Shown one piece after another: positions 15,568 to 34,503 of a stretch of 64,000 nucleotides of DNA; the first letter of the stretch is position 1, and every line of letters begins with the position of its first letter. Source of the stretch: Escherichia coli (GTDB lineage: Bacteria > Pseudomonadota > Gammaproteobacteria > Enterobacterales > Enterobacteriaceae); the NCBI RefSeq assembly GCF_048403405.1, contig NZ_CP183129.1. One strand, given 5' to 3'. The notes beneath the pieces are model-generated. The model saw only the letters and a list, made by a program, of their open reading frames with translations. It was not told the DNA's origin and searched no databases. Both the position numbers and the translations under genes were made by a program.

Positions 15568-15965
15568 TACTATTCCTCAAAAAACCAAAAGCGCGTTATT
15601 TACCCAAAAAGGGAACGCGTTAACTCGCAGAAAGAAAAATACAGTTCGCTATCCTACAAATTATCATTCGTCGATGTAAGGAATAGTTATGAATACAGGC
15701 GTCTCAAGGCACATAAACACAAAAAAAGATTAATATTCTACTGTTTTATTTTGACGCGGGTTGAAAGAGGCAGAATTAAAACCTCGTAAATTGAAATATA
15801 TATTGATAGAGTGAATGTATTTTAGGTGAATAATAAGCGTTATTTATTTGACGATTTATAGCAACTCAATATTATCCTCTCGTATAAATATACATTAGGT
15901 GATAGATTAACCTTCGCTATTTTCTCATCCTGTATCGAATATATTTATTTCCTGAATAATTAATC

Positions 15966-16628: not shown

Positions 16629-16630
16629 AT

Positions 16631-16810
16631 TCACATTCTGTCCTGAAAATCCAGTTCGTCACAGTTAACCAGTTTTAGTGGATTAACTGAGTTCATATTG
16701 CGGCATTTGTCTGTTTCTGTTGCCAGCAGTTCAATCCACTGCATCAGTAAAGTATCAAACAGAAAAACGAAGACAGCGAAAACGACGAGCCACCAATACT
16801 TGCGAATCAT
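16631..16810 (-). CDS. yhdU: small membrane protein
   Basis: MIRKYWWLVVFAVFVFLFDTLLMQW... (59 aa using the internal Met); synteny. Confidence 0.7.
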   Translation of the reverse strand: MIRKYWWLVVFAVFVFLFDTLLMQWIELLATETDKCRNMNSVNPLKLVNCDELDFQDRM

Positions 16811-17880: not shown

Positions 17881-18007
17881 ATCAAAACCTATGTTTCTTA
17901 CAGTTTGTCATGGTTCGTTAGTGTTTATATAACTTATTGAATAAAATGATTAATGTTGTTTCTTTAGTTTACCTTTGTTCATTTCTGTTCATAGGGTAAT
18001 ATTAAAG

Positions 18008-18029
18008 TGTGCAGTCAGTGGTGCAGTCA
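18008..18029 (+). repeat. 22-nt repeat TGTGCAGTCAGTGGTGCAGTCA (candidate integrase arm-type site; partner 33059-33080)
   Basis: An exact second copy in the same orientation lies just inside the other island end. It is internally a tandem GTGCAGTCA(G) duplication. Confidence 0.55.
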
Positions 18030-18055
18030 GTTTTCAATATGAATTAAGGTTTTCT

Positions 18056-19279
18056 ATGGCTGGAGGAACGAACAAATTAAGCGATACATCGTTGCGTAAG
18101 ATGCTGGGGAGGGAAATCGATAGAGATAGATTTTATGCTGACGGTGATGGATTGAGTATCAAGGTGTCAAAAATTGGCGTTCTTACTTGGTATTTCTCTT
18201 TCCGGATTGGTGGGCGTGAATCGTATTCACAGCGTGTTAAGCTTGGAAACTACCCGGATCTTTCTCTGAAAGCTGCGCGCGAGAAACGTGAACAGTGTCG
18301 AGCATGGCTTGCTGAAGGTAAAAATCCAAAGCATCGGTTAAATGTGGCAATACATGAAACACTCAAACCAGTGACGGTAAAAGAGGCTCTGGATTACTGG
18401 ATCAGAGAATACGCCGTTTACAAGCGCACGAATGTTGATAAACACATTGAGCAACTGAGGAAGCATATTTTCCCCTATATAGGTGATTATCCGTTATCAA
18501 TGTGCGAAACCCGGCATTGGCTGGAGTGTTTCGCTAGAGTAAGGAATGACGCTCCAGTGGCAGCTGGTTATTTGCTGCAGATGTGTAAGCAGGCTCTGAA
18601 GTTTTGCCGCGTACATCGTTATGCGGTTAGCAATGCTCTGGATGACCTGACTATCGATGATGTTGGTAGAAAACAGAATAAGCGCGATAGGGAACACAGC
18701 AGTCAAGAGTTAGCAGATATTTGGCAGGAATGTTCAGGTAAGAAATTTAAACCATACTATTCATCGTTGTTGCGTCTATTGGTGGTGTTTGGATGTCGAA
18801 CCCAGGAGCTTCGGTTGTCACGTATTACAGAGTGGGATTTAAAGGATTGGATCTGGACAGTGCCTAAAGAACACAGCAAAGGCGGAGAGAAGATATTGCG
18901 CCCTATTCCAGTGGTAATACGCCCATTCATCCAACAGCTTATAGAGCAACACAAAAACTCAGGTCTTTTGTTGGGTGAAATAAAGAAACCAGAAGCTGTC
19001 AGCCAATGGGGGAGGATGATATATAAGCGTCTGGGGCATATTGAATCGTGGACACTTCACGACCTGCGCAGGACGTTTGCTACCACACTAAATAACATGG
19101 GGGTTGCACCACATGTTGTTGAACAGCTTCTCGGTCACACATTAGGTGGTGTAATGGCCATATACAATCGTAGCCAGTACTTACCAGAAAAACTAGACGC
19201 TCTAAATAAATGGATGGAACGGCTTGAGGTTATTTCTGGTCAGTATTCAAATGTAAAAATATTGAAGGTAGCGAAATGA
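18056..19279 (+). CDS. int: P4-family tyrosine integrase
   Basis: N-terminal P4-int-type arm-binding region (LSDTSLRKM...DGDGLSIKVSK.G..TWYFSFR) and C-terminal catalytic residues (HDLRRTFAT...LLGH...AIYNRSQY). The start is set at MAGGTNK, which has an AAGG SD. Confidence 0.93.
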   Translation: MAGGTNKLSDTSLRKMLGREIDRDRFYADGDGLSIKVSKIGVLTWYFSFRIGGRESYSQRVKLGNYPDLSLKAAREKREQCRAWLAEGKNPKHRLNVAIHETLKPVTVKEALDYWIREYAVYKRTNVDKHIEQLRKHIFPYIGDYPLSMCETRHWLECFARVRNDAPVAAGYLLQMCKQALKFCRVHRYAVSNALDDLTIDDVGRKQNKRDREHSSQELADIWQECSGKKFKPYYSSLLRLLVVFGCRTQELRLSRITEWDLKDWIWTVPKEHSKGGEKILRPIPVVIRPFIQQLIEQHKNSGLLLGEIKKPEAVSQWGRMIYKRLGHIESWTLHDLRRTFATTLNNMGVAPHVVEQLLGHTLGGVMAIYNRSQYLPEKLDALNKWMERLEVISGQYSNVKILKVAK

Positions 19280-20324: not shown

Positions 20325-20349
20325 GGTGAGTTATGGTATATAAAACAAA

Positions 20350-20369
20350 GGCGACCGGGGGCGGTCGCC
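20350..20369 (-). terminator. rho-independent terminator for the leftward RHH operon (convergent with alpA)
   Basis: GGCGACCG gggg CGGTCGCC. On the minus strand it is followed by TTTGTTTTAT. Confidence 0.65.
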
Positions 20370-20436
20370 AATGGATACACACTAAACTTGAACGCATCAC
20401 CAACAATGCCACATTTGCGGCTGGTGGGCAATGTGA

Positions 20437-20616
20437 TCAGTCAGATTTGGTTCGTTCCAAGGTTTGCAACGAGAGCTTTTTCCTGTGCTCTTTAAGGAAT
20501 TTCTCAAGAGCAAACGAACAAGGTGCGAATCTTTCTGATTCATGTTCATGCGCTATATTTTTGCGTCGTCTCTTACGAGTTGGTGATGGTGTTTTGGTTG
20601 ATTCTGTGTCGCTCAT
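20437..20616 (-). CDS. possible small basic protein (59 aa), not in the ORF track
   Basis: Minus-strand ATG at 20616 preceded by AGGA. It translates to MSDTESTKTPSPTRKRRRKNIAHEHESERFAPCSFALEKFLKEHRKKLSLQTLERTKSD and sits between the RHH gene and the terminator. Confidence 0.35.
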   Translation of the reverse strand: MSDTESTKTPSPTRKRRRKNIAHEHESERFAPCSFALEKFLKEHRKKLSLQTLERTKSD

Positions 20617-20673
20617 GGTGCTGTCCTGTAAAGCAATGCGCCTGCGTTCCTCAAACTATGGCGCTGATAGTGG

Positions 20674-20979
20674 CTATTCCTGCCCTTTGACCTTGCGTCG
20701 CTGGAGTTCTTCACGCGCGACGGTGACGAGTTGCCCGATCTCCTCGGCGGCTTTGACTCCGATTTTTTCAACCTGCGCTAGGGCATCGAGCGAAGAAACC
20801 AGGAGGTTTTCTCCGCTTCCTTCTGCCTGGCGGCGGGCGATTTCACCGCGCATGGCGGTTACTATGAATCCGGCGTTGCTTTCACCGTCCAGTTTTACGG
20901 ATTCCATGCCTTCAATAACATCATGCGGGATCCGAGCTGTCAGTGATTGTGATTTTGCGTTTTTTGAACCTGTAGCCAT
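20674..20979 (-). CDS. ribbon-helix-helix (Arc/CopG-like) DNA-binding protein, candidate island repressor
   Basis: 101 aa from MATGSKNAKSQSLTARIPHDVIEGMESVKL..., with the SD GAGAGGA 6 nt upstream. The pattern is an N-terminal beta-strand and two helices typical of RHH, with a coiled C-terminus. Confidence 0.6.
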   Translation of the reverse strand: MATGSKNAKSQSLTARIPHDVIEGMESVKLDGESNAGFIVTAMRGEIARRQAEGSGENLLVSSLDALAQVEKIGVKAAEEIGQLVTVAREELQRRKVKGQE

Positions 20980-21000
20980 CTGTAATCCTCTCAATGAAAG

Positions 21001-21077
21001 TGTAAGACAATATACACATAAAAAGTCTTACATAAAAGCATTGACATGTAAGCCACCTATAAATAAAGTTACTTACA
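21001..21077. promoter_or_regulatory. divergent control region with four TGTAAG half-sites in two inverted pairs
   Basis: TGTAAGAC (21001) / GTCTTACA (21025) and TGTAAGCC (21047) / ACTTACA (21071). TTGACA at 21041 is embedded among them. Confidence 0.5.
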
Positions 21078-21175
21078 CCTTGTTAATGCAAGGTGCAGAA
21101 ACGACGAAACCCCGCACTGTAGGAGCAGTAACGGGGCTTCTAACCACCAACGATAGCAAGATTATCGAGGCAGCT

Positions 21176-21379
21176 ATGAGAAATCATACCATACACCCGC
21201 AAGGGCGGGACTCGTACAACCTGAATAAATACATCTGGCGTTTTATCGCCCTGAGCACCGCACAACCGCGCGTGATTCACATCGTGGCCACCAGCGAACA
21301 GGAAGCACGCCAGCAATCCCCGGCTGGCTGCGTGATGGTATTCGCCGCCCGCATTCGTCAGGGGGGGTGCCATGCCTGA
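21176..21379 (+). CDS. Icd-like (host cell division inhibitor-like) small protein
   Basis: 67 aa: MRNHTIHPQGRDSYNLNKYIWRFIALSTAQPRVIHIVATSEQEARQQSPAGCVMVFAARIRQGG. The '..F.A.....P.V...VA.SE.EAR....G....FAARI' pattern matches proteins I recall being annotated Icd-like in P4-like elements. A GAGG SD is present. Confidence 0.6.
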   Translation: MRNHTIHPQGRDSYNLNKYIWRFIALSTAQPRVIHIVATSEQEARQQSPAGCVMVFAARIRQGGCHA

Positions 21380-21698: not shown

Positions 21699-21998
21699 AT
21701 GAGAACATATTTATCTGGCTTGACTGCCAGCGGTTATGCACACCCTAAAATTATCCCCGGCGCTATTTATCTGGATAAGAACGGTAACAGAGTAACGGTA
21801 AAAGAACTGATGTTTGACCGTGTTTATTTTATTCGTGATGGCTATTCATTTCATAGTTCGCTGAACGTGGAGATCTTTATTTGCAGATTCCGGCGGGAAA
21901 TCCCGCTTTCCAGAAATAACCATGTGTCATGTATGGATGTTGATAAAAAACTACAGGAACTGAAAAACATGATTGCCGCGTGGAGAGAGCAGAAATGA
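21699..21998 (+). CDS. hypothetical protein
   Basis: 99-aa ORF whose stop overlaps the primase start (ATGA). No confident family assignment. Confidence 0.5.
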   Translation: MRTYLSGLTASGYAHPKIIPGAIYLDKNGNRVTVKELMFDRVYFIRDGYSFHSSLNVEIFICRFRREIPLSRNNHVSCMDVDKKLQELKNMIAAWREQK

Positions 21999-23812
21999 AA
22001 AAAGCGCCAAATTTAAAACACCAGCCGCGTGACAAAATGACGGAAGTCATCATTTTTGCGGGTAGTGATGCGTGGGCACATGCGAAGCAGTGGCAGGAAC
22101 AGGACGGGCGACTGGCAGGCGATAACGTGCCACCTGTCTGGCTTGGAGAGCAACAACTTGCCGAACTGGACAACCTGCAAATTGTACCGGACGGACGCTA
22201 TCGCGTGCGTCTCTATCAGGCGGGGTTATTGCGTCCGGGGCTTGTTAATACCATCGGGCAGAAACTGGCAGCGGCAGGTGTCAGGGATGCTGATTATTAC
22301 CCTGAAGGAATGCACAGCCAGAAACGGGAGAACTGGCGCGAATATCTGGAACGTGAGCGGGGAGAGCTGGCGGAAAAGAAAAAGGTAGTTGAACTGCCTG
22401 TAAAGAAAAAAGAGCGGGTAAAAGACGATAACGCTTCATCACTGGCGCTTAACCAGATGGGAGCAAGTCAACGCGGCGAAGTTCTCCTGGCACATTATGG
22501 CGGTGAACTGGCGATTCATGCCGACTCTGACACTGTTCACCATTACAACGGCGTTGTATGGGAGCCAGTACAGGATAAAGAATTACAGCGAGCTATGGCG
22601 CAGATTTTCATTGATGCGGAGATCAGCTATTCGCAGAACGCCATTAAATCGGCGGTCGATACCATGAAGTTAAGTTTGCCTGTAATGGGGAATACAGCCC
22701 GTAACCTGATTGGATTCAGTAACGGGGTATTTGATACCAGAACAGGTAATTTTCGGGAGCATAACAAAAACGACTGGTTGTTAATTGCCAGTGAATTACC
22801 TTTCAGCCCACCAGCAGAGGGGGAAACGCTGGCAACACATGCGCCGAATTTCTGGAAGTGGTTACGCCGTTCGGTGGCTGAGAATGACCGCAAGGCGGAT
22901 CGCGTACTGGCGGCATTATTCATGGTGCTGGCGAACCGGTACGACTGGCAGTTATTCATTGAGGTAACAGGTCCAGGGGGAAGTGGTAAAAGCGTGATGG
23001 CGGAGATTTGCACCATGCTGGCGGGTAAGGCTAATACAGTATCAGCAAGCATGAAGGCGCTGGAAGATGCAAGGGAACGTGCGTTAGTGGTTGGCTTTTC
23101 TCTGATTATCATGCCGGATATGACCCGCTACGCTGGTGATGGGGCAGGGATTAAGGCCATTACAGGCGGTGACAAGGTGGCAATTGACCCGAAACACAAA
23201 GCTCCCTACTCAACGCGTATTCCGGCAGTAGTGCTGGCGGTTAACAATAACGCCATGTCATTCAGTGACCGCAGCGGGGGGATCTCACGTCGTCGGGTGA
23301 TATTCAATTTTTCGGAAGTTGTACCGGAGAACGAACGTGATCCGATGCTGGCGGAAAAAATAGAAGGTGAGCTGGCGGTAGTGATTCGCCATCTGCTTAC
23401 ACGGTTTGCTAACCAGGACGAAGCCAGACGCCTGTTATATGAGCAGCAGAAATCTGAAGAAGCACTGGCGATAAAGCGAGAGGGGGATTCGCTGGTGGAC
23501 TTCTGCGGCTATCTCATGGCGTCGGTAATGTGTGATGGCCTGTTAGTGGGTAATGCTGAAATTGTGCCATTCAGCCCGCGCAGATATCTCTATCATGCCT
23601 ATCTGGCTTATATGAGGGCACATGGGTTTGGTAAACCTGTAACACTGACGCGCTTCGGTAAAGATATGCCGGGGGCAATGGCGGAATATGGCAGGGAGTA
23701 TATGAAACGGAAAACGAAGCACGGTTTGCGTTCAAACGTGACACTGACGGAGGAATCAGAAGACTGGATGCCATCATGTGTATCGGTCACTAATGACGAT
23801 AGCAAAAATTAA
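21995..23812 (+). CDS. P4-alpha-type primase / SF3 (D5-like) replicative helicase (pri-rep)
   Basis: Walker A VTGPGGSGKS and the downstream ITGGDKVAIDPKHKAPY...RRRVIFNF pattern of the 'phage/plasmid primase, P4 family, C-terminal domain'. The iteron origin lies immediately 3'. Confidence 0.88.
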   Translation: MKKAPNLKHQPRDKMTEVIIFAGSDAWAHAKQWQEQDGRLAGDNVPPVWLGEQQLAELDNLQIVPDGRYRVRLYQAGLLRPGLVNTIGQKLAAAGVRDADYYPEGMHSQKRENWREYLERERGELAEKKKVVELPVKKKERVKDDNASSLALNQMGASQRGEVLLAHYGGELAIHADSDTVHHYNGVVWEPVQDKELQRAMAQIFIDAEISYSQNAIKSAVDTMKLSLPVMGNTARNLIGFSNGVFDTRTGNFREHNKNDWLLIASELPFSPPAEGETLATHAPNFWKWLRRSVAENDRKADRVLAALFMVLANRYDWQLFIEVTGPGGSGKSVMAEICTMLAGKANTVSASMKALEDARERALVVGFSLIIMPDMTRYAGDGAGIKAITGGDKVAIDPKHKAPYSTRIPAVVLAVNNNAMSFSDRSGGISRRRVIFNFSEVVPENERDPMLAEKIEGELAVVIRHLLTRFANQDEARRLLYEQQKSEEALAIKREGDSLVDFCGYLMASVMCDGLLVGNAEIVPFSPRRYLYHAYLAYMRAHGFGKPVTLTRFGKDMPGAMAEYGREYMKRKTKHGLRSNVTLTEESEDWMPSCVSVTNDDSKN

Positions 23813-23824
23813 ACTTATGGAATA

Positions 23825-24049
23825 ACTGTTCACCACTGTTCACCCTGTCATAAATATCTTTTATATCAGTATATTATAGGGTTAACAGTTATTTATGAAC
23901 TGTTCACCAAACTATTCACTGTTCACCTTTTTGATTGTTTATTGAGCTTCAAGGGTGAACAGTGGTGAACAGTTGGTGAATAGTTTTTGTGAAACTGTTC
24001 ACCCCTTAACCTTATGAATTAAAAGATAAAATATCAAAAGGTGAACAGG
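23825..24049. repeat. replication-origin iterons: ACTGTTCACC decamers in both orientations around AT-rich spacers
   Basis: Direct copies at 23825, 23835, 23899, 23918 and 23994. Inverted copies (GGTGAACAGT) at 23954, 23964 and 24040 (9/10 match). Degenerate copies at 23911 and 23975. Confidence 0.75.
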
Positions 24050-24196
24050 TGAAGGGTTAAAACGCAAAAATTTTAATTTACTGCTGTGAGATAAAGACTA
24101 TGACAGTAAAGCACACAAAAACACGCGCTTGATTTGACCGAATACTGGTTAAAAATGACTACAAATTAGATAAATTAGATAAAATAGGAAGAAATA

Positions 24197-24457
24197 ATGC
24201 CGATTCTGACGCATGAAATAAACAATTATTTTGATCAATTCGGACTTCATGATATTGCTTCAATGCCTACCACTCAGTACCGTCAGGCCCTTGCAAATGG
24301 TGGTTTACTGTGGATTGATCATCATGATTTTATTCGTAGCACGCTATCAGATGAAATCCTTGCAACAAATCAAGAGCAGGTTAATGTTTTGATTGAGCAT
24401 TTGCAGGTTTTAAGGAAAAAAATGCCACTACCTCCTAATTGGATGAGTGAGAAATGA
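24197..24457 (+). CDS. hypothetical protein (86 aa)
   Basis: AGGAAG SD before the ATG. AT-rich, no recognisable motif. Ends at the shared hairpin terminator. Confidence 0.5.
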   Translation: MPILTHEINNYFDQFGLHDIASMPTTQYRQALANGGLLWIDHHDFIRSTLSDEILATNQEQVNVLIEHLQVLRKKMPLPPNWMSEK

Positions 24458-24460
24458 ATT

Positions 24461-24489
24461 ATATGGCCTGGCTCTTTGCCAGGCCATAT
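24461..24489. terminator. bidirectional hairpin terminator between convergent genes
   Basis: ATATGGCCTGG ctctttg CCAGGCCATAT (11-bp stem) between the stops at 24457 (+) and 24492 (-). Confidence 0.7.
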
Positions 24490-24491
24490 AC

Positions 24492-25001
24492 TCAAAGCAT
24501 TGTTAACAAGGCGGACGCACCAGCACCAACGAGACTGGCTACCGTACTATTATTTAGTAAATCCTTAAGCAAATTTTTTGCCTGAGGATCTTGTGATTGA
24601 GAAACTTTTTCAACAAGTTCAGTTATGCTGAGATTTACAATAAGATTGTTATGCTCACCGAGTTGAACCTGTGTACCGGATATGTTACCAATGTTAAATG
24701 TATTTTGGCTAGATTGTTTTGGTTTATGTTCATTAGCAGTCAGATTCTCGACTTTTAATGTAAGCATGTGAGGGTGATTAGTACCAACATTGAGTGTACC
24801 TCCTGGTAAAAATGACATATCAATTACTTTTAATATTATTTCCCCCTTCCCTAGTTTTTGAGTGATTTCATCTCCAATATTAATATCTGGTTCTTCAGTA
24901 TAAGGGATTAGCACTTTTTTTTCAGCTGAGTTTCTTTTCCCCTTGTATTCAACTCCTGCGATTGTGAATTTTTCTGGATATGCCATGACGTTAAGATCCA
25001 T
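24492..25001 (-). CDS. hypothetical 169-aa protein: beta-rich N-domain, RHIM-like 'FNIGNISGTQVQLGEHNN' module, hydrophobic Gly/Ala-rich C-tail (candidate effector)
   Basis: Strong SD GAGGAG 7 nt upstream, 29 nt after the upstream gene's stop. The C-terminus is STVASLVGAGASALLTML. The motif translation was checked by hand against the DNA at about 24636-24707. Confidence 0.7.
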   Translation of the reverse strand: MDLNVMAYPEKFTIAGVEYKGKRNSAEKKVLIPYTEEPDINIGDEITQKLGKGEIILKVIDMSFLPGGTLNVGTNHPHMLTLKVENLTANEHKPKQSSQNTFNIGNISGTQVQLGEHNNLIVNLSITELVEKVSQSQDPQAKNLLKDLLNNSTVASLVGAGASALLTML

Positions 25002-25030
25002 TATGTTGCTCCTCGTGATCGCTTTTGCGT

Positions 25031-25807
25031 TTAACTAGTAGATTTGAAAGTGTATTTTGTCTGTGTGTTAAGGTTTGATATTAGAGCTTCATAGTTTTCT
25101 TTACTCAGTAAGTTTTTTGAGTAGGCCTTCTTAAGAAGGTTTTTTGAGAGAGTAATAATTTCTTTTTCACCAGTTGATGCAATTTTTGAGAAGAACTCAG
25201 AGAGCTCTTGTATATTAATATTGTTATTTGTACCAAGTTGTACGTATTGGCTATTTACAGTAGCTATGTTGAATATGTTTTGTTTTGGATGCGTTTTTTT
25301 TAGCTTTTCAATTTCAGCATGTTCTATGATTTTTTGAGAGATACTTTCAATATAACCACTAACGTCTTTTTTTTCTGGGAAGGAAAACCCATCACCTCTT
25401 AATATTTTATCTGTTTCGGCCATTTCATAGTAAAGCCTGCGAATCATCACAAGTAATAGTAATTTAGCCTCCTCGATTGACTCCTCTATTGAGAATTGAC
25501 ATTCAATTGCTAACGCGGAGGTCTGCTCTAAAACAATTTCTGAGTTATTTTCAATGTAAGGATTGATAAAACCATTCCAAAAAATTTGAACGGGAGTACC
25601 TTTAAATGCCAAACCTTGATAGCATATTTCTGTTCCATCATATGCAGTAACTTTCATGGGGGGGCCTGCATTGAAAAATCGCCATCTATGAATCAGTTTG
25701 GTTAATCTTTCGTCAATCTCCCGAACTAATTTATAAGTCCTTTTGAACAATGGGGATGGTCGCATCCCAGGAACAGCAAGAATTTCTTTTGTCACTTGAA
25801 TCTCCAT
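25031..25807 (-). CDS. hypothetical 258-aa protein carrying the same 'FNIATVNSQYVQLGTNNN' module (candidate sensor/partner)
   Basis: Long ORF in an AT-rich segment and first gene of a two-gene operon. The motif was checked by hand against the DNA at about 25211-25282. No known catalytic motifs recognised. Confidence 0.65.
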   Translation of the reverse strand: MEIQVTKEILAVPGMRPSPLFKRTYKLVREIDERLTKLIHRWRFFNAGPPMKVTAYDGTEICYQGLAFKGTPVQIFWNGFINPYIENNSEIVLEQTSALAIECQFSIEESIEEAKLLLLVMIRRLYYEMAETDKILRGDGFSFPEKKDVSGYIESISQKIIEHAEIEKLKKTHPKQNIFNIATVNSQYVQLGTNNNINIQELSEFFSKIASTGEKEIITLSKNLLKKAYSKNLLSKENYEALISNLNTQTKYTFKSTS

Positions 25808-26054
25808 AGTTTATCAGCATTTTTGTAAATTATTTGTGTGTTAACATTCAAGACTGTTCGTAACAAAAATACCTTATTTACATCAATTTTTTGATCCATA
25901 TCTTAAATAGTGGCACTCAGACGTGAGCCGCCACTGTTGCCGTCCGATCCCCTGCGCGATGCCGGGTTGATCTGCGAGATGCCGAGAGTGTCGGGCGGCG
26001 CTCCCTCCGTGTTGGTTTCACGTCCTGAATCTTAACCAATACGAGAAAACCTTC

Positions 26055-27224
26055 ATGAAGAAATTAATCGAGCTCCGCCAGCAAAAAAACGCCCTGAAAA
26101 ACCAGATGCGATCCCTGCTGGAAAAAGCCGACAGTGAAAACCGCAGCCTGAACGATGACGAGGGCAAACAGTTTGATGAACTGCGTGCAAAAGCTGATTC
26201 CCTCGATACAGACATTTCCCGCCTCGAGTCTGTGGCTGATGAAGAACGCAGCAAGCCAGGAACGGGCATCCAGAAAGTATCATCTGATGAATTGCGTAAC
26301 TACATCGTAACCGGAGATGTGCGATCTCTGTCCACCAGCACTGACAGCGGCAGGGATGGCGGATATACCGTAATTCCTGAGCTTGATCGCGAAGTCATGC
26401 GCCAGCTACAGGATGACAGTGTTATGCGCGTGATCGCGACCGTGAAGACTGCAAAATCAAATGAGTTTCAGAAACTGGTTTCCACTGGCGGCGCAACTGT
26501 AGGACGAGGCACAGAAGGCAGCGCACGCAGTGAAACCAACACCCCGAAAATTGAACGCGTAACCATCAAGCTGAACCCGATCTACGCCTACCCGAAAACC
26601 ACGCAGGAAATCCTAGATTTTTCAGAGGTGGATATTCTGGGCTGGTTATCCTCCGAAATTGCCGACACGTTCGCCAGCACCGAAGAGGATGATTTTGTTA
26701 ATGGCAACGGTAACGGCAAGCCGAAAGGCTTCATGGCTTACACCCGTGCGGCGACCAGTGACAAAACCCGCGCTTTTGGCACCATTGAAAAAATGGTAGC
26801 GGCAAGTGGAACCGCCATTACAGCGGACGAACTGATCGACATTCTCTACAAGCTGAAAGCGAAATACCGCAAAAATGCCGTCTGGGTGATGAACTCGGGC
26901 ACGGCAGGGACACTACAGAAGCTGAAAAATGAGAACGGCGATTATATCTGGCGCGACAGCCTTAAAGAAGGTGCGCCGGATATGTTGCTTGGTCGTCCTG
27001 TTTACTGCCTGGAGTCCATGCCGGACATCGGCGCAGGAAAAGCACCGCTAGCGGTTGGCGATTTCAGTCGTGGTTATTTCATCGTTGATCATGTAACAGG
27101 GATTCGCACCCGACCGGACAACATTACTGAACCCGGATTCTACAAGGTCCACACGGATAAATATCTGGGCGGTGGTGTGGTGGATTCAAACGCCATCAAA
27201 ATTCTGGAAATGAAAGCTGGCTAG
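26055..27224 (+). CDS. HK97-family major capsid protein
   Basis: 389 aa with an N-terminal coiled-coil delta/scaffold domain (MKKLIELRQQKNALKNQMRSLLEKAD...) followed by an HK97-fold-type sequence. Confidence 0.9.
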   Translation: MKKLIELRQQKNALKNQMRSLLEKADSENRSLNDDEGKQFDELRAKADSLDTDISRLESVADEERSKPGTGIQKVSSDELRNYIVTGDVRSLSTSTDSGRDGGYTVIPELDREVMRQLQDDSVMRVIATVKTAKSNEFQKLVSTGGATVGRGTEGSARSETNTPKIERVTIKLNPIYAYPKTTQEILDFSEVDILGWLSSEIADTFASTEEDDFVNGNGNGKPKGFMAYTRAATSDKTRAFGTIEKMVAASGTAITADELIDILYKLKAKYRKNAVWVMNSGTAGTLQKLKNENGDYIWRDSLKEGAPDMLLGRPVYCLESMPDIGAGKAPLAVGDFSRGYFIVDHVTGIRTRPDNITEPGFYKVHTDKYLGGGVVDSNAIKILEMKAG

Positions 27225-27237
27225 TCATGAGTAAGGA

Positions 27238-27258
27238 GGAGGCTGCGGCCTCCTTTTT
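27238..27258 (+). terminator. hairpin + T-run just after the capsid gene (candidate partial terminator/attenuator)
   Basis: GGAGGC tgcg GCCTCC TTTTT, located between the capsid stop and the protease start. Confidence 0.45.
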
Positions 27259-27278
27259 CAGCTTTATGGAGTACACCG

Positions 27279-27839
27279 ATGAAAAACACCGATTTTGAAA
27301 TCCGCACATCTGAACTGACCGCCAGCAATAAAAAGCTGGTGGGGTATGCCGTTCGCTGGAACAGCCTTTCAGAAATTATCTGGGACGAATTCCGCGAACA
27401 GTTCACGCCGGGGGCTTTTGCTGACTATCTGGCGGCGGGTAATGATGTGCGCTGCCTGTATGAGCATGACTATACCCAACTGCTGGGGCGCACCAAATCC
27501 GGCACTCTGGTACTGACTGAGGATAACACCGGGTTACGTTTTGAACTGACACCGCCGGATACCCAGCTTGGAAAAGATGTGCTTACGCTGGTGGAGCGTG
27601 GCGACATTACAGGAATGAGCTTTGGTTTTCGCGCATTATGCGAGGAGTGGAGTATCGCGCAAAAACCGTATTTGCGTACCGTAACCGCCGCTGAACTCCG
27701 TGAAATCACAATAACGTCGATGCCTGCTTATCCAGAATCTGGCGTGGAGATTGCCCACCGTTCGTTGTTTGCACAGCACCCTGAATTATGCCCGACAGGA
27801 AATAATCGTCATCGCTGGTCTGAGCTGGCGGGGTTGTGA
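27279..27839 (+). CDS. HK97-family prohead maturation protease
   Basis: 186 aa. The pattern GYAVRWN...FTPGAF...VRCLYEHD...LLGRT..GTL.L.ED..GL.F......T..G.D.L.L..RGD..GMSFGF matches the S78/U35 prohead protease family. Confidence 0.88.
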   Translation: MKNTDFEIRTSELTASNKKLVGYAVRWNSLSEIIWDEFREQFTPGAFADYLAAGNDVRCLYEHDYTQLLGRTKSGTLVLTEDNTGLRFELTPPDTQLGKDVLTLVERGDITGMSFGFRALCEEWSIAQKPYLRTVTAAELREITITSMPAYPESGVEIAHRSLFAQHPELCPTGNNRHRWSELAGL

Positions 27840-27840
27840 T

Positions 27841-29055
27841 ATGTGGTGGCCTTTTAGTCGTAAAAAAAGCGAGCAGCGTAACCTGTCCATTGATGATTTT
27901 CTGGCGCTGTCCGGCGTACCGAATACCGGATCCGGAGAATATGTTTCTGCCGGGACGGCTGAATCATTGCCTGCAGTGATGAATGCGGTTTCTGTCATCG
28001 CTGAGGCGGTGGCCACGATGCCGTGTTATCTGTATCTGGTACGTAATGACAAGGGCAGGGAGGCGCGGGAATGGCTGGACAGTCACCCGGTAGATATTCT
28101 GCTGAATGAGCAGCCTAATTCGTGCCAGACACCTTACCAGTTTAAACGCACAATGATGCGTCACTGCCTGCTGAACGGTAACGCCTATGCGGTTATTGAG
28201 TGGGGGCAGGACGGGCAGCCAAAATCACTTCATCCTTATGCGCCGGGGTGTGTTGTACCGGAACGCACAGGCGCACACAAATACCGCTATACCATCACCG
28301 AACCCTATACAGGAACGGTGCGCACGTATTTACAGGAAGAAGTTCTGCATCTCCGCTATGCCTCGGATGATGGCTTTCTGGGGCGCTCCCCCGTCACGAT
28401 TTGCCGTGAGGCACTTGGGCTTGGCCTTGCTCAACAGCGCCACGGAGCCAGCATTATGAAAGATGGCATGATGGCGGCAGGGATTATCACGTCAGGCGAA
28501 TGGCTGGACGGCGTGAAAGGTAAACAGGCATTGGATGCTCTGGAACGCTACAAGGGGGCGAAAAATGCCGGAAAAACGCCAATCCTTGAAGGGGGCATGG
28601 ATTACAGGCAACTGGGAATGAGTAACCAGGATGCGGAATGGCTGGCCTCCCGTCGCTTCTCCATTGAAGACATCGCCCGCATGTTCAACGTATCGCCTAT
28701 TTTTCTGCAGGAATACAGCAACAGCACCTACAGCAATTTCAGCGAGGCAAGCCGCGCGTTTCTGACCATGACAATGCGCCCGTGGCTGGCGAACTTCGAA
28801 CAGCAAATCAAGGCCGCTTTGCTGGTGGCTTCTCCCGTACCTGGTACCCGTTATCTGGTTGAGTTTGATTCAGCCGATTTATTACGCGCCACACCCACCG
28901 AACGTTATGCCACGTATGAGAAAGGGATTAAGAACGGGATCATGAATCCGAACGAAGCCCGTGAGCGTGAGGGTATGCCGCCGCGTGAAGGTGGTGATGA
29001 GTTCAGCCAGGCATGGAAACAGACTGTGGAAATTAAAGGGAGAAAAGATGAGTGA
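27841..29055 (+). CDS. HK97-family portal protein
   Basis: 404 aa from MWWPFSRKK, with the start abutting the protease stop. Portal-type sequence (NPNEARE..G.PP..GGD C-terminal region). Confidence 0.88.
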   Translation: MWWPFSRKKSEQRNLSIDDFLALSGVPNTGSGEYVSAGTAESLPAVMNAVSVIAEAVATMPCYLYLVRNDKGREAREWLDSHPVDILLNEQPNSCQTPYQFKRTMMRHCLLNGNAYAVIEWGQDGQPKSLHPYAPGCVVPERTGAHKYRYTITEPYTGTVRTYLQEEVLHLRYASDDGFLGRSPVTICREALGLGLAQQRHGASIMKDGMMAAGIITSGEWLDGVKGKQALDALERYKGAKNAGKTPILEGGMDYRQLGMSNQDAEWLASRRFSIEDIARMFNVSPIFLQEYSNSTYSNFSEASRAFLTMTMRPWLANFEQQIKAALLVASPVPGTRYLVEFDSADLLRATPTERYATYEKGIKNGIMNPNEAREREGMPPREGGDEFSQAWKQTVEIKGRKDE

Positions 29056-29350
29056 AGCCAGAATTACACCTGATGAAGTCAGGGCACATCTTCGACTTGA
29101 TGATGATTTATCCGGTGAAGGCGAACTTCTGAAAATGTATACCGATGCGGCGCTGGAAGCCTGCCAGAAGCATATCGGGAAACGTTTTGAAGACGGGCTG
29201 GAATTTACCCCGGCAATGCGTGTTGGTTGCCTGATGTACATCGCTTTCCTGTACGAGAACCGGGAAGCGGTTTCACCAGTGGAGCACTCGGAACTGCCTA
29301 TGGCTATTTCTGCGCTCTGGTCAGTTTATCGTGACGTAGGGGTGTACTGA
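29048..29350 (+). CDS. gp6-like head-tail connector (adaptor) protein
   Basis: 100 aa: MSEARITPDEVRAHLRLDDD...LLKMYTDAALEACQKHIG, a typical gp6-like/DNA-packaging-connector N-terminus. It overlaps the portal stop. Confidence 0.75.
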   Translation: MSEARITPDEVRAHLRLDDDLSGEGELLKMYTDAALEACQKHIGKRFEDGLEFTPAMRVGCLMYIAFLYENREAVSPVEHSELPMAISALWSVYRDVGVY

Positions 29351-29790
29351 TGCCGTGGCAACCATTAAGGCGATGCACTGAGCCTGGCTGTAATAAGCGC
29401 GTGAAGTCCGGCAAGTGTGAAGAGCACAGGCGGGCTGCATGGCGTGCAGAGGATGCCAGACGGGGACACCGCCGCGCGCGCGGGTATTCCCGACAGTGGG
29501 ACAAATACCGCGCCCTGTACCTGAGCAAAAACCCGTTATGCGTGCGTTGTCTGGCTAAGGGGATTTATACGCCAGCTCTTGTGGTGGATCACATCATTCC
29601 CATCAATGGCGGCGGTGATGTTCTCTTCTGGCCTGAGTGGAATCACCAGGCATTGTGCCAGACGTGCCACAACCGTAAGACGACACGGGAAGATCCAGCC
29701 ACGAAAGCAAACCGTAAAGCGGGCATGTATCACGAGCAGGAAGAACGGGCGGCACACCGTAACGACTGGATGTATGGCGATGATGACTGA
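29350..29790 (+). CDS. HNH endonuclease (packaging-associated)
   Basis: 146 aa with the HNH core VVDHIIPINGGGD...NHQALCQTCHNRKT and Cys-rich zinc motifs. It lies directly upstream of terS/terL, as in HK97-like cos phages. Confidence 0.88.
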   Translation: MPWQPLRRCTEPGCNKRVKSGKCEEHRRAAWRAEDARRGHRRARGYSRQWDKYRALYLSKNPLCVRCLAKGIYTPALVVDHIIPINGGGDVLFWPEWNHQALCQTCHNRKTTREDPATKANRKAGMYHEQEERAAHRNDWMYGDDD

Positions 29791-30078
29791 ACAGGAGCAA
29801 ACCAGGCTGATACGTGGACTGATAAGGCAGCGTGACACATGGAAGACACAGGAGACAGAGCACAAAGCCAACAGGACAGGGCGCACAAAACTCACCACAG
29901 CGAAGCGATTAACCGACCGTGACCGCGAGGTCATGGAATGTTTTCGCAATCGCTGGTGAGGCCGTCAGAGGGGGTGGGGGTGGTTTTCAGGACGAAACCG
30001 TCCCTGCCGGACACCGACCGCCCCCTCAAATTTTTGTGCACGGTAATTTTTTTGAAAATAATTGGGCGAAAAAAGAAC

Positions 30079-30435
30079 ATGGCAAGACCACCAAAAGCCC
30101 CCGCTTACCTGGATGAAATCGCGGTCAGGCAGTGGAAGGAAAAATCGCGCCAGCTTTCCGGGCGGGAAGACCTTACCCCCGCCGACTGGAGCAATCTGGA
30201 ACTGTATTGTGTTAACTACTCCATATACCGCAAAGCCGTCGAAGACCTTGCGACGCGCGGGTTCAGCATTGTTAACAGTCAGGGCAGCGAGAGCAGAAAC
30301 CCCGCACTGAGCGCAAAGGCTGACGCAGAAAGAATAATGATCAAAATGGCTTCTTTGCTGGGTTTTGACCCGGTAAGCCGTCGCAGAAATCCACCGGAAA
30401 CAGAGGAAGAGGACGAACTTGACCGCCTGGCATGA
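30079..30435 (+). CDS. terminase small subunit (P27 family)
   Basis: 118 aa from MARPPKAPAYLDEIAVRQWKE..., typical of the P27-family TerS N-terminus. The longer ORF-track start was rejected. Confidence 0.8.
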   Translation: MARPPKAPAYLDEIAVRQWKEKSRQLSGREDLTPADWSNLELYCVNYSIYRKAVEDLATRGFSIVNSQGSESRNPALSAKADAERIMIKMASLLGFDPVSRRRNPPETEEEDELDRLA

Positions 30436-32080
30436 GTACGCAGAAGGCGTAAAAAACGGCAAAATTACGGCCTGTAAACGACTGAAACAGGCCGTTAAAC
30501 GGTATTTTTCTGACCTTGAAAACTCCCTTTACACGTTCGATCCGGAGGTCGTGGAGCGGTTTATTGCCTTTTCCCGGGTGTGTCCGCACGTAAAAGGCGC
30601 AATGCGCGGTAGTCCCATTGAACTGGAGCCGTGGCAGCAGTTCGCCTTTGCCTGCATCCTGGGCTTTAAGGTTAAGGCCACCGGACGGCGCAAATACACC
30701 AGCGCATTCATTGAAGTACCGCGAAAAAATGCCAAATCCACGGTCGCCGCTATCCTGGCTAACTGGTTTCTGGTTATGGAAAACGGGCAGCAGGATATTT
30801 ACACCGCCGCCGTGAGTCGTGATCAGGCGCGGATCGTGTTTGATGATGCGCGTCAGATGTGCCTTTTATCCCGACCGTTACGAAAGCGGGTAAATATTCA
30901 GGCACACAAGGTGATACACCCGAAAACTAACAGCCTGTTAAAGCCACTGGCAGCAAAAGCGGCAACCATTGAAGGTACAAATCCGAGTCTTGCCATTGTG
31001 GATGAATATCACCTGCACCCTGACAACGGGGTTTATTCCGCACTTGAGCTGGGGATGGGGGCGCGTCCGGAGGGGCTGTTATTTGCCATCACCACATCGG
31101 GGAGCAACGTTGTTTCAGCCTGTAAACAACACTATGACTATTGCTGTCAGATACTGGATGGTGAAGAGATGAACGAATCCATGTTCGTTCTGATTTACGA
31201 GCTGGATGATGAAAGCGAGGTTGACGATCCGGCCATGTGGATAAAGGCGAATCCAAATATCGATGTTTCCGTCGATCGTGAAAAACTGGCCTCAACCATC
31301 CAGAAAGCGCGGGGTATTCCGTCGCAGTGGGTGGAAATGCTCACCAAGCGATTCAATATCTGGTGTCAGGGGGCTACGCCGTGGATGGGTAACGGTGCAT
31401 GGGCGGAGTGCGCCGGAACGTTCGCGGAGGCGGATTTATACGGGCAGGAGTGCTACGCGGGACTGGACTTATCATCAACCAGCGATATTTCCAGCGTGTG
31501 CTATGCCTTTCCGGTCGGTAAAAAGATTATGCTGGTTTCCCGTCACTATCTGCCGGAATTTCAGCTACAGAACCCCGCCAATAAAAACCGCGCCATCTAT
31601 CGCCAGTGGGTAAAGGCGGGCTGGATACGCACAACACCGGGTGACTGCATTGATTATGACCGTATCCGTGATGACATCATGGCGGATGCAGAGAATTTCA
31701 ATATCAGGCTGGTGGGCTTCGATACATGGAACGCCACGCACCTGAGGACGCAGCTACAGGGGGCAGGATTTGAGGTGGAGCCGTTCCCGCAAACATACCT
31801 TCGTTTCAGTCCGGCGGCGAAATCGTTCGAAGTTTTTGTTAACCGGAAGGTGATTGTGCATCGTGGTGATCCGGTGCTGGCCTGGTCAATGAGTAATGTT
31901 GTGATGCAGAGTGACGCGAACGCCAATATCAAGCCGAACAAGAAAAAATCATCCAACAAGATAGACCCGAGCGTTGCGGCGCTGATGGCGTTTGGCACAT
32001 TCCAGGCAGAGCATGAGGAATTTGCATTTGATATGAGCGACAGCCACAAAGAGCGACTTGCGGCGTTTGATGGGGTATGA
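30419..32080 (+). CDS. terminase large subunit
   Basis: 553 aa with a TTG start overlapping the terS end. It has an ATPase Walker-A-like VPRKNAKST and Walker B AIVDEYH, followed by a nuclease domain. Confidence 0.9.
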   Translation: MTAWHEYAEGVKNGKITACKRLKQAVKRYFSDLENSLYTFDPEVVERFIAFSRVCPHVKGAMRGSPIELEPWQQFAFACILGFKVKATGRRKYTSAFIEVPRKNAKSTVAAILANWFLVMENGQQDIYTAAVSRDQARIVFDDARQMCLLSRPLRKRVNIQAHKVIHPKTNSLLKPLAAKAATIEGTNPSLAIVDEYHLHPDNGVYSALELGMGARPEGLLFAITTSGSNVVSACKQHYDYCCQILDGEEMNESMFVLIYELDDESEVDDPAMWIKANPNIDVSVDREKLASTIQKARGIPSQWVEMLTKRFNIWCQGATPWMGNGAWAECAGTFAEADLYGQECYAGLDLSSTSDISSVCYAFPVGKKIMLVSRHYLPEFQLQNPANKNRAIYRQWVKAGWIRTTPGDCIDYDRIRDDIMADAENFNIRLVGFDTWNATHLRTQLQGAGFEVEPFPQTYLRFSPAAKSFEVFVNRKVIVHRGDPVLAWSMSNVVMQSDANANIKPNKKKSSNKIDPSVAALMAFGTFQAEHEEFAFDMSDSHKERLAAFDGV

Positions 32081-33470: not shown

Positions 33471-34436
33471 TTACGCAAAATTTTCGAAGTATGCCTCCAA
33501 CGCCTCCAGCTGTTCGCTGGCATCCTCAATGGCGTTGAATGTGCGCCGAAACTGGTCATTTGGAGCGTGTTCCTGGAGATACCAGGAAACGTGTTTACGT
33601 GCAATTCGGTACCCTTTTGCCGGACCATAAAAGTCATGCAGTTCCCGAACGTGCGCGCAAAGCAAGCGCTTAACCTCTGCCAAAGGCAGCGGGGGCAGCA
33701 ACTCCCCAGTGTCCAGATAATGCTGGATTTCCCGAAAGATCCAGGGTCTTCCCTGAGCTGCGCGGCCTATCATCAGGGCATCCGCCCCTGTATAGTCGAG
33801 CACAGCTCTGGCTTTAAGCGGGTCAGTAATGTCGCCATTCGCGATAACCGGAATGGAAACTTTCTGCTTAACTGCCCGAATACTGTCGTACTCAGCTTCT
33901 CCATTGAACAAACAGGCGCGTGTACGGCCATGAATGGTCAGAGCCTGAATGCCACAGTCTTCAGCCAGTTGGGCAATCTCTTCGCAGTTACGGTGTTCCG
34001 GTGCCCAGCCGGTGCGAATCTTCAGGGTAACAGGAACGTCCACTGCATTGACGACCTCGGTAAGGATCGATTTAACGACATCCGGGTACTGCAAGAGGGC
34101 TGAACCTGCGAGCTTGCGATTCACTTTTTTAGCCGGGCAACCCATATTGATATCAATAATCTGGGCACCGCTTTCCACGTTAATACGTGCTGCATCTGCC
34201 ATTTCTTTCGGATCGCTACCAGCAATTTGCACGGTGCGAATACCGGGTTCATCAATGTGCACCATCCGTAAACGAGATTTGTCGCTTTCCCAAACCTGAG
34301 GGTTAGAAGACATCATCTCGGATACTGTCAATCCGGCTCCCATCTCGTAGCACAACGTCCGAAAAGGTCTGTCTGTAATGCCAGCCATGGGCGCTGCGAT
34401 CAGGCGATTTCTGAGCTGATATTGTCCGATGCGCAT
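33471..34436 (-). CDS. dusB: tRNA-dihydrouridine synthase B
   Basis: 321 aa with a Dus-family TIM-barrel sequence; lies upstream of fis in the same operon. Confidence 0.95.
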
Positions 34437-34475
34437 GAGTTAAGAAATGACCATACTGTGACTGCAAGGCGGCGT

Positions 34476-34503
34476 ATATTACGCATTTTTTGCACGAGAT
34501 GAA
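34476..34503 (-). promoter_or_regulatory. dusB-fis promoter (-35 TTCATC, -10 TAATAT, GC-rich discriminator)
   Basis: The minus strand reads TTCATCTCGTGCAAAAAATGCGTAATATACGCCGCC, matching the described fis P as I recall it. Confidence 0.6.

Follow-up and report, generated by a model that had tools for sequence, protein, structure and literature searches.

A two-gene operon whose products share a RHIM-like motif occupies a probable accessory-gene hotspot of a capsid-forming PICI beside fis in Escherichia coli

Introduction

An accessory region of PICIs that lies downstream of pri has been described together with its Tai systems (He et al. 2024, PMC11364771), and in capsid-forming PICIs (cf-PICIs) variable regions were reported both before and after the packaging operon (He et al. 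2025, bioRxiv 10.1101/2025.02.11.637232). The position concerned, between the replication module or origin and the packaging operon, has already been named as an expected or demonstrated PICI immune hotspot (PMC11364771; bioRxiv 10.1101/2025.02.11.637232). In these accessory regions conserved flanks enclose exchangeable contents, and in several cases the cargo is not seen by PADLOC or DefenseFinder, as is true here for PADLOC. The antiviral hotspots of P2 and P4 (Rousset et al. 2022, PMC9122126) follow the same principle of a fixed site with conserved bounds and diverse AT-rich defence cargo, although the satellite family, the site and the cargo are all different from those described below.

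A different kind of described system is formed by gene pairs that share a signalling motif. In E. coli, Bab/Agp acts by abortive infection and signals via an amyloid motif common to two adjacent genes (10.1101/2024.11.07.622273). In Bab/Agp (ECOR25, BASS11) and in the Bell/NLR pairs with BASS3, RHIM or PP motifs (10.1101/2024.11.07.622273; 10.1101/2020.01.06.895854) the effector, of Bell/HeLo type, has the motif at its C-terminus, and the sensor, of NLR or TGP type, has it at its N-terminus.

Here we describe a segment, positions 24060-26054, of a 64,000-nucleotide stretch of E. coli DNA (the window) which a first, sequence-only reading had picked out as an AT-rich, strand-inverted cargo slot of a phage satellite. 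We conclude that the segment is very probably an accessory-gene hotspot of a cf-PICI integrated beside fis, and we compare its present cargo with the systems named above.

Results

Base composition and limits of the variable block

The break in base composition had been claimed by eye, and a sliding-window G+C calculation bore it out. The G+C content of 24060-26054 was 0.366 as compared with 0.510 for the pri-rep flank (21980-23812) and 0.527 for the packaging operon (26055-32080), that is 36.6% against 51-53%. Sliding windows of 1995 bp over the 64-kb sequence gave a mean G+C of 0.501 with a standard deviation of 0.039, and only 0.8% of them had an equally low G+C, every one overlapping 24060-26054, which is the lowest-G+C 2-kb piece in the window.

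The limits of the slot required revision. A variable block does lie inside 24060-26054, but junction mapping gave it a smaller extent: conserved flank DNA extends on the left to ~24152-24165 and restarts on the right at 25910, or at 25821 where islands likewise bear minus-strand cargo, and the variable block is therefore ~24166-25820/25909. At 24166-25820 it has 35.6% G+C, and sister E. coli islands carry other gene sets in its place. The putative left recombination junction is at ~24152-24165, where the conserved flank DNA stops. The conserved left context, outside the cargo, contains the iteron array of the satellite origin (CTGTTCACC and its inverse, 23824-24048), and a ten-codon remnant at 24100-24132 on the plus strand (MTVKHTKTRA and a stop codon) derives from an 81-aa gene that heads a hyp-ssb-82aa operon in sister islands.

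On the right, the first conserved element beyond the insertion point is TTTTGTAAATTATTTGT (25822-25838), which is kept with or without cargo. The conserved capsid-operon leader (25910-26054, plus strand, 60% G+C) contains two 13-nt direct repeats at 25952-25964 and 25972-25984 and is part of the packaging module, outside the slot. An Rfam scan of 23700-26300 gave no credible match. Divergent promoters for the cargo and capsid operons had been predicted in 25808-26054, and this prediction was only half verified. A candidate sigma-70-like promoter for the capsid operon, TTTACA-16-TATCTT, is located at 25877-25904 on the plus strand and is conserved, sister islands having TTTACA-16-TATGTT at the equivalent place, while a relaxed sigma-70 scan found no comparable minus-strand promoter for the cargo operon.

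Exchange of cargo between conserved flanks

The slot was compared among 57 E. coli islands in which both flanks are near-identical, and at least five configurations were observed. The slot of 1759 bp with the present minus-strand gene pair was found in 19 of the 57, a slot of 1554 or 1565 bp with an ssb module and a lone 168-aa gene in about 24, and a slot of 1008 bp with the ssb module only in six; the remaining forms were a PerC or a ProQ variant. The pair was absent or replaced in islands whose pri-rep proteins are 97-100% identical and whose capsid proteins are 98% identical. At the same site in other genera we found a 414-aa gene or PDC-M18A/B, likewise on the minus strand and AT-rich. 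PDC-M18, a PADLOC candidate, is a two-gene operon in the identical slot and on the same strand in the cf-PICI of Enterobacter sp. C2 (E = 3.5e-69 and 1.1e-22 for PDC-M18A and PDC-M18B, locus L023), and it has no sequence relation to the present pair.

The hotspot proposed in the sequence-only reading is thus supported by conserved flanks and exchanged content, both among the 57 E. coli islands and in related cf-PICIs with unrelated cargo. The genes are not invariant, being present in only 19 of the 57 islands, and the G+C break is strong. On one side of the hotspot is the 86-aa gene, which with its terminator closes the replication-side operon, and on the other is the capsid-operon regulatory region.

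The 86-aa gene on the left flank

The 86-aa gene (24197-24457, plus strand) forms the left flank of the cargo site and in the window stands after the remnant of its operon's first gene. Its product belongs to the phrog_1957 family and bears the family motif YR..L..[VI]DHHDF[LIV]RS.L..EI.ATN.EQV; the PHROG match notwithstanding, tblastn of the protein against phage genomes gave no match. Homologues with 29-78% identity were found at the same position in 10 of the 10 islands compared, whatever the cargo, and were in place whether the slot was empty, contained a lone 168-aa gene or contained unrelated cargo. The gene had been suggested to be cargo or an immunity/antitoxin-like accessory of the neighbouring pair, a suggestion which does not agree with the presence of same-place homologues in all cf-PICIs examined regardless of cargo. 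It is quite probably a cf-PICI backbone gene flanking the hotspot, and neither cargo nor a partner of the pair.

The minus-strand operon

The three ORFs, the 13-bp hairpin and the intergenic region were located where the first reading had placed them. Its description of the cargo as strand-inverted applies to the minus-strand pair, and not to the 86-aa gene, which lies on the plus strand. The first gene of the operon is a 258-aa ORF at 25031-25807 (minus strand), probably a 254-aa gene: the GTG at 25795 is the more likely start because it is preceded at 6 nt by GGAG, homologues start with MTKEIL and the RefSeq protein has 254 aa. The second gene (24492-25001, minus strand) encodes a 169-aa protein of the phrog_5789 family and follows after a gap of 29 nt, with GAGGAG ahead of its start. 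Between the converging stop codons lies a hairpin (24460-24490) whose 13-bp stem is perfect and closes a loop of 5 nt, with a stability of ~-26 kcal/mol. As it has a T-rich tail on the minus-strand side only, it is convincing as the terminator of the cargo operon, and the proposal of a shared terminator is weaker where the 86-aa gene is concerned.

Comparison with Citrobacter orthologues gave dN/dS values of 0.08-0.14 for the three genes and 0.08-0.11 for the capsid gene, and these low, capsid-like values indicate that all three ORFs are real genes under purifying selection. The three proteins had been said to have no recognisable homology, which proved an overstatement in that each of them falls into a PHROG or sequence family and the minus-strand pair are mutually related. 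The PHROG matches were only to families of unknown function, Pfam and NCBIfam scans of the three proteins gave no match, and PADLOC-DB v2 profiles gave 0 families at E <= 1. A literature search with the RefSeq protein accessions returned no paper.

Between the E. coli and Citrobacter islands the trio and the packaging genes are collinear with a uniform nucleotide identity of ~76%. The trio recurs in Yersinia and in one other lineage, with three different replication modules. Such divergence in step with the packaging genes would also be compatible with genes that serve the life cycle of the satellite itself.

The 169-aa and 254/258-aa protein families

The 169-aa protein consists of a beta-barrel (aa 10-86), the motif (aa ~98-124) and three helices, which end in a short hydrophobic Gly/Ala-rich tail of 18 residues, STVASLVGAGASALLTML. 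Its family, of ~168 aa and with more than 180 clusters at 90% identity, is highly conserved and reaches Shewanella, Aeromonas and Thermodesulfobacteriota as well as chromosomal islands of marine bacteria. The gene often stands alone, lone 168-aa genes being found in 51 E. coli genomes and in other taxa. Outside PICIs it adjoins AbiJ-like, PDC-S21 and PDC-S60-like genes; these neighbours are without the shared module, and we therefore rejected the view that the gene always comes with a motif-sharing partner.

The 254/258-aa protein has a helical domain B (aa ~10-172) followed by a diverged copy of the C-terminal module of the 169-aa protein. Domain B is a widespread uncharacterised helical domain, which in one protein is fused to a TIR domain. 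The two minus-strand proteins matched each other by BLASTP with E = 7e-6, and an HMM of the 169-aa-family C-terminus matched 258-aa-family tails with E = 1e-32 to 1e-3. The 258-aa family has only 24 clusters, and its gene was directly upstream of a 169-aa-family gene in 5 of the 5 loci read (including the window, L014, L015 and L017); for five further members the pairing was taken only from a contig as long as that of a 169-aa-family member. The comparison showed the 258-aa (254-aa) family to be obligately paired with the 169-aa family, and not vice versa. The hydrophobic end is lost from the 254-aa forms of E. coli, Klebsiella and Citrobacter (mean hydropathy -0.65 vs +1.56) and is kept complete in several members of the 258-aa family (P0021, P0145).

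The shared RHIM-like motif

Both minus-strand proteins conserve a beta-motif with the consensus FNIxxxSGxxVQ[IL]GxxN. The DNA coding for the RHIM-like motif NTFNIGNISGTQVQLGEHNNLIVNLSI of the 169-aa protein lies at 24630-24710 (minus strand), and that for the copy in the 254/258-aa protein (aa 177-200) at 25208-25279 (minus strand). The phi-Q-phi-G core is invariant (V112, Q113, G115), as is N118, and most members have the opening G of the G-phi-Q-phi-G signature shifted by two residues. PF12721 (RHIM) was the only Pfam family that matched the motif peptides of the 169-aa and 258-aa families (E = 0.0022 and 0.14), and the score of 17.9 bits obtained at E = 0.0022 is under the gathering score of 20. 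Although the motif is the most conserved stretch of the family, it was modelled in the AlphaFold2 monomer with pLDDT <50 and no secondary structure.

Motif similarity was 0.394 between cognate partners and 0.359 between non-cognate partners (permutation p ~0.009), a comparison of nine pairs of which five were matched only by equally long contigs and in which shared ancestry can inflate the signal. The tails of cognate partners were no closer than those of non-cognate partners (p = 0.95). An F-to-Y change was present in both partners in two non-sister lineages.

Discussion

We propose that the cf-PICI hotspot carries a two-gene abortive-infection-type module which assembles through its shared motif, an account that, taken as a whole, we regard as evenly poised. 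We infer an anti-phage function, motif-driven assembly and membrane action. That the pair is an anti-phage defence or phage-conflict module is plausible, if a little short of evenly poised; as there is no PADLOC, Pfam or NCBIfam match, the case for it is drawn only from position and neighbourhood. Motif-driven assembly with membrane action is put forward more tentatively. The 169-aa protein would be a self-contained sensor-effector made up of the beta-barrel head, the RHIM-like motif and an amphipathic helical tail with its hydrophobic Gly/Ala-rich C-terminus, and the 254-aa protein would have another helical domain, a sensor or regulator, fused to its own copy of that motif and tail. A phage cue would free the motifs, which would then stack in register to give a homo- and hetero-oligomeric, possibly cross-beta, assembly. 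This assembly may gather the 169-aa helical tails at the inner membrane so that the infected cell is killed or arrested, and the 254-aa protein may either add a second trigger or gate the first.

The pair resembles Bab/Agp and the Bell/NLR pairs in having two adjacent genes with a common N/Q/G-rich motif, alternating hydrophobics and a phi-Q-phi-G core, in having one small protein with a hydrophobic helix, and in its location in a mobile-element defence hotspot. It differs from them in that both proteins carry the motif internally or C-terminally (aa 98-124 of 169; aa 177-200 of 258), with a shared helical tail behind it. Profile scans of the pair found no NLR, TPR or PIN domain, and in place of an NLR or TPR-GreA/B-PIN sensor and a Bell/HeLo domain the pair has a beta-barrel at one N-terminus and a helical bundle at the other. 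The known pairs carry the hydrophobic helix N-terminally and the present one C-terminally, and the small protein is often partnerless. A bolder version, in which the pair is a new amyloid-like (RHIM-type) signalling defence on a phage satellite, of neither NLR nor Bell type, must be considered doubtful. Small stand-alone proteins would then combine a phage-neck-like sensor barrel, a motif that stacks in register and a membrane-active C-terminal tail, and add-on sensors such as domain B would be recruited simply by sharing the motif.

Identity with Tai/Ati was rejected, with hhalign probabilities of 0.2% (TaiEcA, phi80 orf63) and 0.7% (AtiEcA, orf64) and no BLASTP alignment. A Tai-type blocker of tail assembly would be counter-productive for a cf-PICI since the satellite requires helper tails.

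This same dependence lends some support to another function, which we nevertheless think unlikely, namely that the 169-aa barrel mimics a head-closure or stopper (neck) protein and caps helper heads or tails, leaving tails for the satellite capsids. The cf-PICIs require only helper tails, with adaptor and connector proteins setting tail specificity (10.1101/2025.02.11.637232), and PICIs are known to include defences that act by blocking virion assembly (Tai, PMC11364771). The comparison is with head-closure proteins such as PDB 2kz4 and 8vhx_F, of the SPP1 gp16 / Phage_H_T_join type, but the fold is a small six-stranded barrel which PilZ and split-barrel flavoproteins have as well, and these stand in the same match list. 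No sequence-level likeness to any solved neck protein was found, Foldseek of the 169-aa model against viral structures gave non-specific matches, and a PDB profile search gave only a spurious CsrA match (E = 0.54). The family also occurs widely beyond satellites, in chromosomal islands of marine bacteria, a spread which a satellite-specific role cannot explain, and the conserved motif and hydrophobic tail, both absent from neck proteins, would be left without a role.

A toxin-antitoxin or addiction pair, in which the 169-aa protein is a membrane toxin neutralised by co-assembly with the 254-aa protein through the module, is distinctly unlikely. Such a pair would be consistent with the tight two-gene operon with the putative neutraliser upstream, with the module common to both proteins and with the 254-aa forms of E. 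coli, Klebsiella and Citrobacter that have no hydrophobic tail. The 169-aa family, however, is partnerless in the 51 E. coli genomes and in many other taxa and so cannot be constitutively toxic; several 258-aa members (P0021, P0145) have the full hydrophobic tail, and no profile makes either protein resemble a labile antitoxin or a DNA-binding protein.

It is highly improbable that the three genes are core functions of the island, such as regulators of the packaging operon or of replication, with the low G+C incidental. The collinearity of the trio and its packaging-like nucleotide identity of ~76% between E. coli and Citrobacter, together with its recurrence in Yersinia and one other lineage beside three different replication modules, would accord with such housekeeping, and the 86-aa gene is truly ubiquitous. 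The description fits that gene only, however: there are islands that lack the pair entirely or have unrelated cargo even though their capsid proteins are 98% and their pri-rep proteins 97-100% identical, and the 169-aa family is widespread outside satellites. Scarcely credible is a PilZ-like nucleotide-binding barrel coupling a cyclic-nucleotide signal to a membrane effector, for which a near-invariant R23 (within RxxxK) and the invariance of D61 could be cited, but PilZ identity was rejected because the c-di-GMP-binding signatures RxxxR and [DN]xSxxG are missing from the family alignment, which instead shows RxxxK and D-x-[SK]-x-x-x-G without conservation of the S, and no locus has an adjacent cyclase gene.

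The hotspot itself is ordinary, since PICI and cf-PICI accessory regions at that position have already been described. The precise map of the cf-PICI cargo site, past the terminator of the phrog_1957 gene and ahead of TTTTGTAAATTATTTGT, allows a systematic harvest of cargo. The present cargo consists of two uncharacterised families for which there is no Pfam or PADLOC model and which are joined by a shared RHIM-like module, one of them being widespread and found in defence neighbourhoods. If the two-gene module does co-assemble through its motif, it would provide a compact, genetically tractable E. coli system for amyloid-type immune signalling beyond the NLR/Bell pairs and would illustrate the way in which a satellite reliant on helper tails arms its host. 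If the amyloid-like reading is true, RHIM-like signalling would reach ordinary unicellular Gammaproteobacteria as well as an architecture of neither NLR nor Bell type.

The cargo site of the capsid-forming island

The slot between the iteron origin and the capsid gene (24060-26054) sits inside a capsid-forming PICI (cf-PICI) integrated upstream of fis, which carries an integrase (17975-19279), pri-rep (21980-23812), iterons (23824-24048) and capsid, protease, portal, connector, HNH, TerS and TerL genes (26055-32080). Of 5426 complete E. coli genomes, 19 carry the slot sequence at 99.4-100% identity. The sharp compositional break proposed in the sequence-only reading was borne out, with a G+C of 0.366 over the slot and 0.356 over its variable block (24166-25820) compared with 0.510 for pri-rep and 0.527 for the packaging operon; the slot is the lowest-G+C 2-kb stretch of the 64-kb window, approximately 3.5 sd under the mean. 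Two more low-G+C stretches (0.32-0.41) were observed in the window, at 15400-16800 left of the integrase and at 34400-34800 beyond dusB. A plus-strand 348-aa ORF (20333-21379), which overlaps an annotated minus-strand YlcI/YnfO-family gene (20674-20994) and Icd-like genes, is probably spurious. Strain MS 69-1 (locus L001) has the same slot and packaging module and a different left end (L001 6159-7345 vs window 17975-19279); since a truncated acrE lies against an HTH gene there and the annotation shows no integrase, this copy may be rearranged or degraded.

Sister E. coli islands encode pri-rep and capsid proteins 97-100% and 98% identical, respectively, to those of the window. DNA homology to these islands ends at approximately 24152-24165 and is back at 25910, or at 25821 where the sister island also has a minus-strand gene. 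Just left of the break, a ten-codon remnant, MTVKHTKTRA* (24100-24132), survives from the 81-aa gene with which the hyp-ssb-82aa operon of sister islands begins, and the window's island has lost its ssb gene along with this module. A search with both flanks joined identified 57 genomes possessing both, in which the slot was either 1759 bp with the three genes of the window (19 genomes), 1554/1565 bp with hyp-ssb-82aa and a lone minus-strand 168-aa gene homologous to the 169-aa gene described below (about 24 genomes), 1008 bp with hyp-ssb-82aa only (six genomes), or a variant with PerC or ProQ/FinO. These several contents support the suggestion of a variable cargo hotspot between conserved modules. 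In empty islands TTTTGTAAATTATTTGT directly follows the terminator of the 82-aa gene, and the cargo insertion point lies between the two. At the same site Klebsiella islands (L020-L022, 4279-5523) have an unannotated 414-aa minus-strand gene, and the cf-PICI of Enterobacter sp. C2 (L023 4298-5855) has, at exactly this slot, PDC-M18A/B, a PADLOC candidate defence system; both cargoes are 35-38% G+C with flanks of 51-59%. Hotspots of this kind are known: the literature already places an immune or accessory region at this location in PICIs and cf-PICIs (PMC11364771; 10.1101/2025.02.11.637232).

Genes and signals of the slot

All three ORFs of the initial reading were present: an 86-aa gene on the plus strand (24197-24457) and, on the minus strand, a 169-aa gene (24492-25001) and a 258-aa ORF (25031-25807), for which GTG at 25795 is the more likely true start, giving 254 aa. 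The three are under purifying selection (dN/dS 0.08-0.14 vs Citrobacter orthologues; capsid gene 0.08-0.11). The predicted hairpin was confirmed at 24460-24490, where a 13-bp stem without mismatch (about -26 kcal/mol) has a T-rich tail solely on the minus-strand side. Divergent promoters had been expected in the intergenic region upstream of the pair of minus-strand genes; a sigma-70-like site was found (25877-25904, its position kept in sister islands), and no convincing minus-strand candidate was seen there.

After this site lies a 145-nt leader of 60% G+C (25910-26054), upstream of the capsid gene, which is conserved in sister islands with any cargo (92-96% nucleotide identity over the stretch starting at 25910). 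It holds two 13-nt direct repeats, CTGCGCGATGCCG and CTGCGAGATGCCG, spaced 20 nt, and folds a little more strongly than shuffled sequences (z = -2.07); nothing in Rfam matched it. One possible role is that of a regulatory leader for the packaging operon, such as an antitermination or activator site.

The 86-aa gene had been considered a cargo gene or an accessory of the pair, which did not hold, as its position is the same whatever the cargo. In each cf-PICI examined, a homologue is the final plus-strand gene ahead of the cargo site, whether the slot is empty or holds a lone 168-aa gene, the pair, the 414-aa gene or PDC-M18; the gene is part of the cf-PICI backbone. The protein falls in phrog_1957 (E = 7.5e-22), with no Pfam family and no tblastn match in phage genomes. 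Because the window's allele is nearer to that of Citrobacter (78% identical) than to those of E. coli sister islands (37-39%), the recombination block of the window's island includes this gene; the shared block is linkage to the pair and no sign of functional partnership.

The 169-aa and 254/258-aa protein families

The cargo of the window's island is the uncharacterised pair, which is absent from PADLOC v2; a literature search on its RefSeq accessions returned no paper mentioning them. Clustered at 90% identity, the 169-aa family falls into more than 180 groups; its members are nearly always 166-171 aa long, and it retains 52-65% identity to non-enterobacterial members from Shewanella, Marinomonas, Aeromonas and one Thermodesulfobacteriota genome bin. 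A lone member occupies the same site in 51 E. coli genomes. Outside satellites the 168-aa gene was found in small-orphan-gene arrays or beside AbiJ-like, PDC-S21 or PDC-S60-like genes. In Shewanella algae and Pokkaliibacter (L005 4655-11100; L006 6001-8769; L007 3995-10027) it lies among small orphan genes lined up on the same strand (DUF7660, DUF4917/PDC-S21, DUF3806, DUF4279), a layout resembling gene-cassette arrays. On two Aeromonas contigs (L009 383-988; L010 847-1671) an AbiJ-like (Abi_C, PF14355) gene immediately precedes it on the same strand, with an Xre-type HTH gene, VspR and a ResIII helicase on its other side, surroundings that resemble a defence island. The 106-kb record of Klebsiella phage P12620-1 (L019, PQ569648.1) has a cf-PICI-like segment at 98.6-105 kb, in the order primase-like gene, minus-strand 170-aa homologue, capsid, protease and portal, suggesting that this deposited phage genome contains a co-assembled or co-packaged satellite.

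The 254/258-aa family has only 24 clusters. In each of the five loci read its gene was immediately upstream of one of the 169-aa family, and the cf-PICIs carrying both have three different replication modules. For five further members, the contig is equal in length to one bearing a 169-aa-family member. The N-terminal ~160 residues form a helical domain (domain B) with no Pfam model, which an exhaustive HMM search found in 539 representative proteins, alone, after transmembrane segments or in one TIR-domain fusion. The C-terminal part shares homology with the last 72 residues of 169-aa-family proteins, with E = 1e-32 in the members that have diverged least and 1e-3 to 1e-7 in the E. coli/Klebsiella/Citrobacter group, which has lost the hydrophobic end.

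In the AlphaFold2 models the 169-aa protein has a beta-barrel (aa 10-86, pLDDT about 80-85) followed by three C-terminal helices, and the 258-aa protein has a helical bundle (aa 21-170) with C-terminal helices behind it. A shared motif, T/I-F-N-I-x-x-[IV]-S/N-G/S-x-x-[VIA]-Q-[ILF]-G-x-x-N..., is disordered in both models (pLDDT <50), yet is the best-conserved part of both families. RHIM, PP and BASS3 motifs have G-phi-Q-phi-G in common; in the pair phi-Q-phi-G is invariant, whereas the G before it usually sits two residues farther upstream. RHIM (PF12721) was the sole Pfam family of 24,736 to match motif peptides of the two families (six tested; E = 0.0022 at 17.9 bits, gathering score 20; second E = 0.14), a sub-threshold likeness that is suggestive. 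Across nine gene pairs motif similarity was higher for cognate (0.394) than non-cognate partners (0.359; permutation p about 0.009), a difference which relatedness can inflate; the tail showed no cognate excess across the same pairs (p = 0.95). An F-to-Y change (FNI/YNI) has occurred in both partners in two lineages which are not each other's closest relatives. In this small sample, partner residues appear to match at equivalent motif positions as in-register stacking would favour.

Proposed function of the pair

We infer RHIM-like co-assembly and a neck-like sensor in the pair, which would be an abortive-infection-type module, constitutively expressed and housed in the cargo site of the cf-PICI. 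As sensor-effector, the 169-aa protein would oligomerise via the motif, and its Gly/Ala-rich hydrophobic tail would act on the membrane; the 254-aa protein would co-assemble via the same motif, with domain B adding or gating a trigger. Bab/Agp is a precedent for such a mechanism, although, domain by domain, the architecture of the pair is different. The competing readings are neck mimicry that disturbs the joining of helper heads and tails, a toxin-antitoxin pair, housekeeping of the island and a PilZ-like effector. Identity with Tai was rejected on comparison. If functional as the proposed abortive-infection module, the pair would add a new variant to the abortive-infection systems that share a motif.
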